Assembly: GCA_000004695.1 (NCBI GenBank)
Contig: CM000151.3
Span: 416,001 to 480,000 of the forward strand
Direction of reading: 5' to 3'
DNA length: 64,000 nt
Origin: Dictyostelium discoideum
Taxonomy: Eukaryota
Positions within the stretch are counted from its first letter, which is position 1. Every line of letters begins with the position of its first letter. Below the pieces are notes generated by a model, which had not been told where the DNA came from, did not search any database, and worked only from the letters and a program-made list of their open reading frames with translations. Shown here in pieces: positions 1 through 64,000 of this stretch. A program made the position numbers and the translations under genes.

Positions 1-1927
1 TAAAATTTTTTTGAAATCCCAAATTAACTTTGATTTCTTTCAAATTTATGTTGATATTTGTTGGTTTTTGTTGTTGCGTTTGAATTATAATATTATTTAT
101 TAAATTATCATATTCATTTTTAAAATCATTAATTGGTATTTTAGTATTTTTGATATATAATACTATTGAATATAATTGTAAATTAAAAATATTATTTAAA
201 ATTAATTTAAATATTGATTTTAATTCATCTAATTCTTTAATTTTACTTTTATAATGTCTAATTGATGTTAATGGTGAAGAAAATATATTTTCAAATAAAT
301 ATTGATTAATTGAAATTCGTTCGTAATGAAATTCATCATTATTTAAATAAGTATTAAACGTATTTTTTTTCGTTGGTATTGGTGGCGGTGGTTGATATTG
401 TTTATTATAAGAATAAAAAATAAAATCACTATCAGTTAAAATTAAATATTTAAGTGATTTATTTTTTAATAAATTCGAAAATGTATTGATATTAAATAAA
501 CCATGACAGTCTAATTTTATTCTTTCAATTGATGTATTTAATTCTGAAAATAGTGGTTTAAAATAATTTGAAAACATTTCTTTACTTTGATTTATGGTTT
601 TAATTAAATTTTTATTTTTTTCATCATTATAGTAATCATATGAACCACTATCACCATGCTGTCTATAATAATGGAATTTAATTATATCTTCAATATTTTC
701 ATTACATAATGTTATATTTAAAAATTTTAAAGATTTACTTGAAATTAATGAATTAACCATTTCTTTTAAATTGGAGTTTACATTTTCTGAATGATATTCA
801 AAATTAAATGAATTAGTTCCAATTTCATTAAATATATCTGATAATATTGAAACTGGTTTAATTGGTATTTTGATTGTATGTAAATTTTGAAATTCACCCA
901 CTTTTATTAAATTACGAGGTTCAACGAAATCAATATCACCACTATATACTTTAATTGATTCAACTTGTTGGCCTGAATAAACTGGATTGAATAATGTTGA
1001 ATAATTGACATGTGTTTCTAAACTACAATTAATAAAATTTATATTTTTAAATTTGAAATAATTTAATACCTCGAATGAATCCTCATCATAATCATTTTCA
1101 CTTCTAGGTCCATTAATAACTATATTATTAAAACTTAATTCTGTTTGATGATTATTATAGCTTTTATTTATAATATTTTTAATACCATTAATGGTATCTT
1201 CAAGAAGCTCATTTCTAATTTCCATCTCTCTAATATTTAATTCTAAAATTTCAAATAACTTGTATAGTTTATCTTTTTGTTCTTTCGTCATTGTTGATAC
1301 ATATTTAAATATTTCAAATAAAATATCTTGTTTTTTGTCCCCATTTTCATCATAATCTAATACTTCGAAATTAACTAAAATTCTATTATAAATTAATTGA
1401 CCATTTTCAAACTGATTATGAATCGCCTTAAAATCATCAATTGTAATATTATGAAAAAATAAATTCAAACTAAAATAATCATTAATTATCGATTCTTTAA
1501 TTTTAATTATTGAAAATTCATTATTATAATTAATTTTATATAATTTCCTTCTACCATCTTCAAATGTTGAATTAAATATATTATTTTTATTATACTGATT
1601 TTCTTCTTTATTATATATAATATCATTTTTATTAAGGAATGATTCTTTAAAATAATTAATTTTTAACCAATGTTTAAATGATTTATTATTAATAATATTA
1701 TTTGAAATTATTAATGATATAAAATTAAACCATTTTTTTGAAACTAATATATAATTTAATAATTCGTTTCTATTTTTAAAAAATTTAATAAATTTAAATT
1801 GGTTATTATTTTTATTTTTATTACTTTTTAATAAATAATCAATAATTAATTTTAAAATTTCAAAATCAATTATATCTTGAAATATTTTAAAATTATTATC
1901 AACTTTAATTTTTTCAATTGATGACAT
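1..1927 (-). CDS. Hypothetical protein, 5' part only. The frame opens at an ATG at 1927..1925 and stays open for about 640 codons to window position 1, so the gene continues beyond the left edge. Asn/Ile/Lys-rich, no recognised domain.
   Basis: Manual reverse-complement translation from ATG (revcomp of 'cat' 1925-1927) showed no stop over ~1.9 kb in AT-rich DNA, where TAA/TAG normally occur every few codons. The sequence is protein-like: ...NINFINCSLETHVNYSTLFNPVYSGQQVESIKVYSGDIDFVEP... It is absent from the ORF track, presumably because it has no in-window stop. Confidence 0.55.
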   Translation of the reverse strand, partial: MSSIEKIKVDNNFKIFQDIIDFEILKLIIDYLLKSNKNKNNNQFKFIKFFKNRNELLNYILVSKKWFNFISLIISNNIINNKSFKHWLKINYFKESFLNKNDIIYNKEENQYNKNNIFNSTFEDGRRKLYKINYNNEFSIIKIKESIINDYFSLNLFFHNITIDDFKAIHNQFENGQLIYNRILVNFEVLDYDENGDKKQDILFEIFKYVSTMTKEQKDKLYKLFEILELNIREMEIRNELLEDTINGIKNIINKSYNNHQTELSFNNIVINGPRSENDYDEDSFEVLNYFKFKNINFINCSLETHVNYSTLFNPVYSGQQVESIKVYSGDIDFVEPRNLIKVGEFQNLHTIKIPIKPVSILSDIFNEIGTNSFNFEYHSENVNSNLKEMVNSLISSKSLKFLNITLCNENIEDIIKFHYYRQHGDSGSYDYYNDEKNKNLIKTINQSKEMFSNYFKPLFSELNTSIERIKLDCHGLFNINTFSNLLKNKSLKYLILTDSDFIFYSYNKQYQPPPPIPTKKNTFNTYLNNDEFHYERISINQYLFENIFSSPLTSIRHYKSKIKELDELKSIFKLILNNIFNLQLYSIVLYIKNTKIPINDFKNEYDNLINNIIIQTQQQKPTNININLKEIKVNLGFQKNF

Positions 1928-2579
1928 TGTGTATTGATTAAAAAAAAAAAAAAAAATGAAAAAAAAAAAAAAAAAAAAAATTGGTTTTGGTGGTTTGCAA
2001 TTTTTTCAAAAAAATAAAAAAAAAATAAAAAAAATGAAAAAAAAATAAAAAAAAAATAAAAAAATTAAAATCGATTAATTTTATCACTATATTATATATA
2101 TATTCAAAAAATAATATAGTGATAAATTAATTAAAAATAAAAAAAAAATTTAATAACCATACCAGGTGAACAATAAAATCAAAATTATTCTTTCAAATAA
2201 AAATAAAAAATAAAAAATCATGTAATTCAGTTTTTATTAAAAAAAAAAAAAAAATAAAAAAAATAAAAAAAAATCTAATCGAACCAATTAATTGAAATTA
2301 CGAAATAATCTCCACTATCTGGGAACTCTTATCCCAAATTACATTTTTTGTGGTTTTATAAAAAAAAAAATGAAAAAAAAAAAAAGGAAAAAAATAAAAA
2401 AATCTTTTTTTTTTCACAAAATCTTAACAAATCAAAAAAAGTTTTATTTATTTTTTTTAAAATAAAATTTATTTTCATCAGAAAAAAAAAAAAAAAAAGT
2501 TTATTTTTATTTTTTTATTTATTTTTTTTTTTTTTTTTCTGATCAAACATTTTTTCTCAAAATAAAAAAAAAAATAAAA

Positions 2580-62172: not shown

Positions 62173-64000
62173 CACGTGATATTACTATTTAAATTTATTT
62201 ATTTATTGATTAATTTATTTGTTTCTTTTATTTTATTTTATTTTATTTTATTTTATTTTAATATATTTTATTTTAATTTATTTTATTTTATTTTTTTTTT
62301 TTATTTTTTTTTTTTTTTTATTATTGAACAAAAAAAAATAAAATAAAAGAAAATAATATAATATAATATAATATAAATATATATATATTAATATATATTA
62401 ATATATATTAATGTATTTTTTTTTTTTTTTTTTTTTAATTGTATGTTTTTGTGTGTGTCAGTTGTTTTAAGTTTGAAAAAAAAAAAAAAAAAAAAAAAAA
62501 AACCTTTTTGGGTGAGAGTTTTGTTTTTTTTTTTTTTGTTGTGAATTTTTATTTTTTTTTTTTATTTTTTTTTTTTTTCTCGAGTTATTGTTTTATTTTA
62601 GCCCAAACAAAAAAATCAAAACAATCTTGATGAGTTTTTTGGAATTTTGGAGAAAAAAAAAAAAAAAAAAAAAAAAAAAAAAAAAATAAAACTAAAAAAA
62701 AAAAAAAAAAAAATGAATTTGGTATTAGAAATGTTAAAAAAAAAATAATAAAATAAAATGAAAAAATAAATTAAATAAAAAGTATTAATAAAAAGATAAT
62801 TTTTTTTAAATTAAAATTAGATAAGAGAAAATAATGATAATAAAAAAAAAAAATAAATAAAAAAAAAAAAATAAAAAAAAAATAAAAAAAATAAAAAAAA
62901 AATAAAAAAAATAAAAAAAATTTTAAAAAAAAGAAATTTTTTTTTTTTTTTTTTTTTTTTTTTTTTTTATGGTGAGATGCATATAAAACTAAATTTTTAA
63001 ATGTAGGTGTTGGTTTATTTTTGGAGTGTGGGTATGTGGTGGTGTATGTTATCATTTGAGGTATTTTATAAGTACATTAAAGTAAATTAAAAATAAAATA
63101 AAATAAAAATTTTAATTTTATATATTTATATTTATATATAAAAAAAATTGATTTAATAATTTTTTTTTTTTTTTTTTTAAAAAATAAAAATTATTTTTAA
63201 AAAAAAAAAAATAAAAATAAAAAAAAATAAAATAAAAAATAAATAAATAAAAAAAACAAATAATAATAAAATAAATAAATATTTAAATTGAAAAACCACA
63301 CCCAAAATAGAACAAAAAAAAAAAACTAGACATTGTTTCTTATTAACTATTGCATTCAATAGGAAGTTGTACAACTATAAAAATAATATTAAAAAAAAAA
63401 ATATAATCATTATAATATATTAAGATAAAAAAAAAAAAAAAAAAAAAAAAAAAAAAAAGATTAACAAATTCTATTTAAATAAATAGTACTACCTACTATT
63501 TTAAATTTTTTTTTTAAATTTTATTTTTTAAATTTTATTTTTTTTTTTTTATTTTTTTTTTAATATAAATTTATATAAATTAATATTAGGATTTAAAAAA
63601 AAAAAAAAAAAAAAAACAAAAATATATTCTTATTATTAAAATTTTTATTTTGTTGTATTTTTAAAACTTAGCTTTTTTTTTTTTTTTAATTTTTTTTTCC
63701 ACAAAATCATAAAAAAAAAAAAATCTCGCAAAACGATCAACGTATATTGGCATTAATGTAATTGGGGACTTATATTTTTAGATTTTAGATTTGCCAACAA
63801 AATAAAAAAAAAAAAAAAGAGTGGTGTTTTTTTTATTTTTTTTATTTTTTTTTATTTTTTTATTTTTAAAAAAATATATTTAGATTTTTTATTTTTTATT
63901 TTTTATTTTTTTTTTTTTTGAGTAGTGAATGTGAAGCATACGTTGAAATTATATTACAATTGATAAAAAAAAAAAAAAAAAATTAATTTCCATTTTAAAA

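Follow-up and report, generated by a model that had tools for sequence, protein, structure and literature searches.

The introns of Dictyostelium discoideum have a published median length of 104 bp and a mean of 132.6 bp, and its coding sequences a published median G+C content of 28.35% (PMC4683709). The stretch of DNA under study (positions 416,001 to 480,000 of contig CM000151.3, i.e., 64,000 nucleotides (nt) that are together referred to as the window) can be set against these figures: its exons have 27.8% G+C, and the 14 introns delineated in nine of its genes belong to the shorter part of the published range, although the sample is small. The window is almost certainly nuclear DNA of D. 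discoideum strain AX4, taken here to be part of chromosome 2, with genes carrying short GT-AG introns that were misread by the bacterial-style calling behind its list of open reading frames (ORFs). It is an ordinary piece of a genome whose sequence and annotation have been available for about two decades, and it holds no new biology.

In an exact look-up, ten proteins encoded in the window were identical, residue for residue and over their full length, to D. discoideum AX4 entries in RefSeq and UniProt. Five of these are uninterrupted ORFs (DDB_G0271480, DDB_G0271482, DDB_G0271486, the IPT/TIG protein Q55B03 and DDB_G0295819), and five are spliced models that match from the first to the last residue (alpha-galactosidase, clcA, PreP, DDB_G0271510 and trmt61a). 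The genes are arranged in the order of the DDB_G and UniProt numbers of the AX4 reference genome (Q55B15, Q55B14, Q55B12, Q55B10 and so on). No difference from that genome was detected in this comparison, which used encoded proteins and gene order rather than a direct DNA alignment to the AX4 record, with six modelled products lacking an exact look-up match. Judging from gaps in the numbering, the transporter described below would be DDB_G0271484 and vta1 DDB_G0271488, while the LRR gene neighbours clcA and RPC5 neighbours trmt61a. At the DNA level, a BLAST comparison with D. discoideum assembly GCA_054883475.1 (three loci, L001–L003, with alignments of 16–20 kb plus shorter pieces) yielded 99.3–99.5% identity over ~57 kb (window ~6.8–63.5 kb), with genes in the same order on its contig JBTAPE010000001.1 at ~441.8–498.7 kb. 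The two differ by indels in homopolymer runs and repeats, and many of their proteins are nevertheless identical. The best matches fall within the Dictyostelia (lineage Amoebozoa; Evosea; Eumycetozoa; Dictyostelia).

The gene content and composition agree with this assignment. Pfam searches of the larger ORFs revealed eukaryotic families (Vta1_C, Melibiase_2/C, Voltage_CLC with CBS, LRR, Peptidase_M16 with M16C_assoc and PreP_C, GCD14, RPC5, and SPX with EXS) next to families typical of dictyostelids, i.e., FNIP repeats and TgrO1-type Ig with IPT/TIG; a B-box was also matched. The window has 22.2% G+C overall, dropping to 13.7% between genes and 7.8% within introns. Together, the ten protein identities, the DNA identity, the dictyostelid families and the G+C content point to D. 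discoideum AX4. An earlier note made from the letters of this DNA had called it a Dictyostelium-like nuclear genome, and the protein and DNA identities bear that call out. Its description of the DNA as A+T-rich with codon-level polyglutamine (polyQ) and polyasparagine (polyN) also stands: the longest homopolymers are N44 (in an SPX-EXS gene), Q43 and N41 (both in a 1212-residue protein gene) and Q26 (in a transporter gene), and nearly all homopolymer codons are AAT (1216 vs. 117 AAC) and CAA (908 vs. 29 CAG).

To build splice models, the stop-to-stop segments of each gene were listed, and all GT...AG intervals joining neighbouring segments in frame were enumerated. For five genes, this resulted in models identical to complete AX4 proteins (lengths in amino acids, aa; exons in order of transcription):

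16789–18039, minus strand: alpha-galactosidase (GH27) AGAL_DICDI, DDB_G0271490, 385 aa, exons 18039–17786 and 17692–16789, identical to XP_645802.1 / Q55B10
17693–17785, minus strand: GH27 intron, 93 nt, GTAAGT...TAAG
19997–22658, plus strand: chloride channel clcA, 863 aa, exons 19997–20284 and 20355–22658, identical to XP_628848.1 / Q54AX6 CLCA_DICDI
20285–20354, plus strand: clcA intron, 70 nt, GTAAGT...TAAG
39398–42761, minus strand: presequence protease PreP, 1066 aa, exons 42761–42506, 42425–41568 and 41484–39398, identical to XP_645544.1 / Q8MP58
42426–42505, minus strand: PreP intron 1, 80 nt, GTGAAA...TCAG
41485–41567, minus strand: PreP intron 2, 83 nt, GTAAGT...AAAG
48711–51089, minus strand: HTTM-like gene DDB_G0271510, 742 aa, exons 51089–50921, 50849–50490 and 50410–48711, identical to XP_645548.1 / Q86JJ1
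50850–50920, minus strand: HTTM-like gene intron 1, 71 nt, GTAAAT...TTAG
50411–50489, minus strand: HTTM-like gene intron 2, 79 nt, GTAAGT...AAAG
52500–53516, plus strand: trmt61a (TRM61/GCD14), 312 aa, exons 52500–53138 and 53217–53516, identical to XP_645549.1 / Q86JJ0
53139–53216, plus strand: trmt61a intron, 78 nt, GTAAGT...TTAG, omitted from RNA-derived contigs

Splicing also lengthened the domain matches. The Melibiase_2 match of the alpha-galactosidase grew from positions 142–284 of 284 in the listed ORF to 1–284 in the spliced product (93 to 234 bits), and the GCD14 match of trmt61a from 1–153 to 1–247 of 247 (276 to 371 bits); the truncated matches are as expected from an ORF that covers a single exon. 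In spliced PreP, a Pfam match to positions 1–180 of the 181 in Peptidase_M16_C spans junction 2. Moreover, spliced transcripts of trmt61a were found in two Logan contigs (L004 and L005, from SRR24091726/7), which align to 52479–53140 and then to 53217–53554, so that the 78-nt intron is absent. These contigs are 1.0 kb long, are 99.8% and ~96% identical to the two blocks and encode a 309-aa Logan protein; one of them retains a remnant of a 5′ Illumina adapter. Both conditions that the earlier note had set for its own refutation, a lack of spliced transcripts and a best match outside the Amoebozoa, have thus turned out in its favor, the former at one of the 14 junctions.

For the gene at 48711–51089, the earlier label "LMF" (lipase maturation factor) has to be dropped, while its split by two introns was confirmed. 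No Pfam family, LMF1 included, matched DDB_G0271510 at E-values up to 10, and no solved structure matched it significantly. A weak similarity to the HTTM-type SdpB family was found (TIGR04033, E=7e-7, far below the family cut-off), and UniProt names the protein "HTTM-like domain-containing protein".

The other four genes that the earlier note had named as split, i.e., those of a transporter, vta1, a leucine-rich-repeat (LRR) protein and RPC5, are supported by the independent annotation of GCA_054883475.1, the DNA of which is identical to the window across all four. Both the annotated ranges (1777, 1815, 1624 and 2077 nt, respectively) and the product lengths (494, 550, 510 and 657 aa) equal those of the window models:

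11690–13466, plus strand: EamA-type transporter, 494 aa, exons 11690–12358, 12445–12940, 13037–13101 and 13212–13466
12359–12444, plus strand: transporter intron 1, 86 nt, GTAAGT...AAAG
12941–13036, plus strand: transporter intron 2, 96 nt, GTAAGT...ATAG
13102–13211, plus strand: transporter intron 3, 110 nt, GTAAGA...ATAG
14599–16413, minus strand: vta1, 550 aa, exons 16413–16207, 16132–16014 and 15925–14599
16133–16206, minus strand: vta1 intron 1, 74 nt, GTAAGT...ATAG
15926–16013, minus strand: vta1 intron 2, 88 nt, GTATGT...TTAG
24350–25973, plus strand: leucine-rich-repeat protein, 510 aa, exons 24350–25450 and 25542–25973
25451–25541, plus strand: LRR gene intron, 91 nt, GTAAAT...ATAG
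53596–55672, minus strand: RNA polymerase III subunit RPC5, 657 aa, exons 55672–53885 and 53781–53596
53782–53884, minus strand: RPC5 intron, 103 nt, GTAAGT...TTAG

When up to three GT-AG introns of a total length set by that annotation were enumerated exhaustively, a single solution emerged for the transporter, for the LRR gene and, once introns shorter than 45 nt were disallowed, for RPC5. The solutions for vta1 numbered two, the second of which is implausible (its three introns have poor donors, and one is just 32 nt long). Domain and ortholog continuity point the same way. The Pfam EamA match of the transporter (2–134 of 135) spans junctions 2 and 3, the Vta1 match (2–145 of 145) spans both vta1 junctions, and the LRR matches run on past the junction of their gene. 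The RPC5 junction lies beyond the reach of Pfam, and the residues around it (...GNQKVDK/YRDIILEAF..., with the slash marking the junction) are contiguous in eight dictyostelid orthologs (GN.K.DK/YR). Two vta1 homologs (P0108 and P0110) have no indel at junction 2, and P0108 is gap-free at junction 1 as well.

An alternative vta1 donor at 15995, giving a 70-nt intron and a 556-aa product, was rejected, as the independent product has 550 aa and the homologs have no insertion there. Separately, the vta1 ortholog of D. discoideum isolate ACTFIW (P0109) is recorded with 258 aa, a different N-terminus (MFLNTL...KVFQATSTT...) and most of the Vta1 domain gone; this short form probably reflects a mis-modelled first exon.

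All nine genes that had been named as split by introns thus proved to be spliced, five by exact AX4 proteins and four by annotation, enumeration and domains or orthologs. Their 14 introns are GT...AG without exception and measure 70, 71, 74, 78, 79, 80, 83, 86, 88, 91, 93, 96, 103 and 110 nt (mean 86 nt). The earlier description of these introns as GTAAGT...(T)nAG of 70–110 nt fits them in part: the length range is exact and GTAAGT is the donor in nine (with GTAAAT in two, and GTAAGA, GTATGT and GTGAAA in one each), whereas (T)nAG fits about one-third of the acceptors (TTTTAG, TTTCAG, TTTAAG), the others being merely A/T-rich before the AG. Base composition would predict ~36 copies of GTAAGT on the two strands of the window, which have 15; nine of the 15 are the intron donors, and the other six lie inside exons, in sense or antisense. 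The AAAATG start context that had likewise been put forward was found in seven of the nine named genes and in 10 of 16 modelled genes, with AATATG in vta1 and AAGATG in RPC5.

On this reading, the 64 kb hold ~20 protein-coding genes, and at least 11 of them contain GT-AG introns, one to three per gene, which are very short and extremely rich in A+T and mostly have a GTAAGT donor. These spliceosomal introns are removed from the pre-mRNA before standard-code translation from ATG. In a list blind to splicing, an exon ORF runs on into the intron until a stop is met, the ORF of the following exon opens with whichever in-frame ATG, GTG or TTG comes first, and shadow ORFs appear in the CAA/AAT repeats.

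The list itself contains 36 ORFs of at least 100 aa, starting with ATG (21), GTG (8) or TTG (7), of which five were confirmed as complete products, unlike the uninterrupted ORFs of a prokaryotic genome. Residues are missing from the listed ORFs of the alpha-galactosidase (152, with a TTG start), clcA (120) and vta1 (127, leaving 423 aa without the N-terminal domain). Spurious tails read from introns were found in the LRR gene (15 residues, ...VNINIYIYIYKYYNY), RPC5 (36, in a listed ORF of 632 aa that reads through its intron), trmt61a (3) and the transporter (5), and the HTTM-like ORF of 574 aa has ~8 extra residues from an ATG at 50435 inside intron 2. PreP is listed as three ORFs, of 116, 239 and 695 aa, the latter two with GTG starts.

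Two of the listed methionines, at 41485 and 62175, had been noted earlier as GTG codons. Both ORFs indeed begin with GTG, and these codons are artefacts rather than starts. The GTG at 41485 consists of the acceptor G of PreP intron 2 and the first two exon bases (AG/TG), and the one at 62175 lies one codon upstream of an ATG (CAC GTG ATG) that the eukaryotic annotation of a near-identical strain implies to be the start, its product having 1212 rather than 1213 aa. Furthermore, eight listed ORFs (14973, 15344, 22144, 29087, 58671, 60159, 60189 and 60678) are shadows read from repeat or coding sequence, out of frame or in antisense, and five of them lie over CAA/AAT repeats. Exact look-up gave no match for the ORFs of vta1, RPC5, clcA, the HTTM-like gene, the SPX-EXS protein and a paralogue described below (A) in their raw form, which is to be expected if raw ORFs are not complete products. 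Six raw ORF fragments likewise had no match.

That a bacterial pipeline would misannotate the window, as the earlier note had foreseen, can be seen in public data. The Logan proteins P0030 (239 aa), P0031 (695 aa) and P0040 (216 aa) are letter-identical to the truncated or extended ORFs 41539–42258, 39398–41485 and 52500–53150, and they keep the GTG-as-Met starts and the intron-encoded tails while being clustered with true proteins. Mis-called Dictyostelium fragments are, in other words, already present in public protein collections derived from Logan. The bacterial ORF track of the window should be disregarded in favor of eukaryotic gene models. Other findings drawn from this track (GTG/TTG starts, "fragmented" enzymes and odd C-terminal tails) should be re-read, and ORFs with V/L/I runs antisense to CAA/AAT repeats are likewise suspect.

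Further interrupted genes were found in two pairs, i.e., paralogues A and B and the B-box/FNIP genes X and Y:

29806–32427, minus strand: paralogue A, lineage-specific, a 682-aa ORF followed by a TGA and then by 190 homologous codons in the same frame
32767–35393, minus strand: paralogue B, ORFs of 420 aa (from MSDNTEIL) and 382 aa with a frameshift at ~34140–34155
43069–44684, minus strand: B-box/FNIP gene Y, several frame breaks, Pfam zf-B_box
45460–47816, minus strand: B-box/FNIP gene X, one intron and a 2-nt deletion near 47600, Pfam FNIP in seven copies
46575–46632, minus strand: gene X intron, 58 nt, GTATGT...TTAG, the unique single-intron solution in GCA_054883475.1

Genes X and Y bring two more spliced genes to the window, so that the earlier count of "at least nine" was an undercount. 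Gene X is intact in GCA_054883475.1 (765 aa); in the window, a deficit of 2 nt at ~47590–47610 shifts the frame just past the B-box, and owing to this frameshift 638 GT-AG solutions were obtained. Gene Y is 90% identical to gene X and is annotated in the other strain with 495 aa and 246 nt of introns, for which 235 GT-AG solutions are possible, so its exon structure is ambiguous.

In paralogue A, the in-frame TGA lies at 30379–30381, where the tandem paralogue has Arg (...DIDSG-stop-CIFSTCKDK vs. ...DIDSGRCIFSTCKDK). The same TGA is present in GCA_054883475.1, where the annotation skips it by means of a 51-nt GTAAAG...AAAG "intron" in coding sequence; the resulting 856-aa model had no exact look-up match. 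Paralogue B has two extra bases relative to GCA_054883475.1 (one in an A run and one in a T run), which split an ORF that is intact there (874 aa) into ORFs of 476 and 382 aa, and this frameshift is either a reference error or specific to AX4. It is possible, though we rather doubt it, that the TGA in A and the 2-nt indels in B and X are real rather than reference errors and reflect recent pseudogenisation in fast-evolving Dictyostelium-specific families. Translational read-through of the TGA in paralogue A is much less likely.

These three loci are also what speaks for a rather different account of the whole window, in which the genome would be A+T-rich and free of introns (prokaryotic, viral or organellar) and the ORF breaks would come from frameshifts, pseudogenes or errors in sequencing, since the TGA in A, the 2-nt insertion at ~34150 and the 2-nt deletion at ~47600 truly are breaks of that kind. 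In the nine named genes, by contrast, a GT...AG interval of 70–110 nt with 7.8% G+C spans each break, five genes yield exact copies of database proteins once these intervals are removed, and transcript contigs lack the trmt61a interval; for the nine genes, the last two results refute this account. The gene content (Vta1, RPC5, CLC with CBS, SPX-EXS and GCD14) is eukaryotic, and a tRNA scan found no tRNA genes in the 64-kb window, nor did any Rfam family reach its gathering threshold there. We consider an intron-less genome wildly improbable, even more so than a source close to AX4, whether a different D. discoideum isolate or another dictyostelid such as D. citrinum or D. purpureum; a source of this kind itself deserves very little credence. 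What speaks for it is the identity of at least 87–90% seen with D. citrinum, D. firmibasis and D. dimigraforme orthologs, and the wording of the earlier note, which had said just "Dictyostelium-like". Ten proteins are, however, full-length identical to AX4 accessions, and other D. discoideum isolates differ from the window in the length of DDB_G0271480 (1185–1186 vs. 1215 aa) and trmt61a (305–313 vs. 312 aa). D. purpureum RPC5 is merely 67% identical, and GCA_054883475.1 differs from the window by indels; a strain derived from AX4 would be indistinguishable from AX4 by these comparisons.

Some observations nevertheless weigh against a spliced AX4 segment. Transcripts provide a direct view of just one of the 14 junctions, and use of the other 13 in vivo is what we infer because of curated or independent gene models, the continuity of domains and orthologs across the junctions, and the lack of realistic alternative GT-AG solutions. 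In addition, exact look-up gave no match for the spliced models of the transporter, vta1 (with either donor), the LRR gene and RPC5, nor for the single ORFs of the SPX-EXS and 1212-aa proteins. These AX4 entries may be missing from the collection searched, or else there may be small differences between the curated AX4 models and those built here; missing entries are favored, since a homolog search with vta1 returned no AX4 entry at all.

Apart from the spliced and broken genes, the AX4 segment contains genes that are read from a single exon:

2580–6227, plus strand: DDB_G0271480, 1215 aa, identical to XP_645797.1 / Q55B15
6622–10584, plus strand: DDB_G0271482, 1320 aa, identical to XP_645798.1 / Q55B14
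14036–14353, plus strand: DDB_G0271486, 105 aa, Pro/Gln-rich, identical to XP_645800.1 / Q55B12
26827–29598, plus strand: SPX-EXS protein, a single 923-aa ORF with N44, Pfam SPX and EXS
35802–38753, minus strand: IPT/TIG (Tgr-like) protein, 983 aa, identical to XP_645543.1 / Q55B03, Pfam Ig_TgrO1 and TIG
56505–57932, minus strand: DDB_G0295819, 475 aa, identical to XP_002649193.1 / C7FZX9
58534–62172, minus strand: polyQ/polyN protein, 1212 aa from the ATG at 62172, a single-exon product of 1212 aa in GCA_054883475.1

The SPX-EXS protein has 990 aa in one exon in GCA_054883475.1 (L001 19146–22118) vs. 923 aa in the window. This strain difference of ~200 nt would sit in the QQAQQQPP repeat at ~27124–27264, since the BLAST alignment breaks there. 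The 1212-aa protein had no Pfam match. Over its region (58–62 kb), the window has a strong positive GC skew and a negative AT skew, which stem from the CAA/AAT repeats of this minus-strand gene and not from a replication feature.

Finally, a short open segment at 56141–56329 on the minus strand ends in ...LFCILLILITLLNF, which looks like the C-terminal end of the protein from the neighbouring gene DDB_G0295819 (...LLCILLVLITLLNL). Judging from this resemblance, it may be the remnant of a gene fragment in the spacer.

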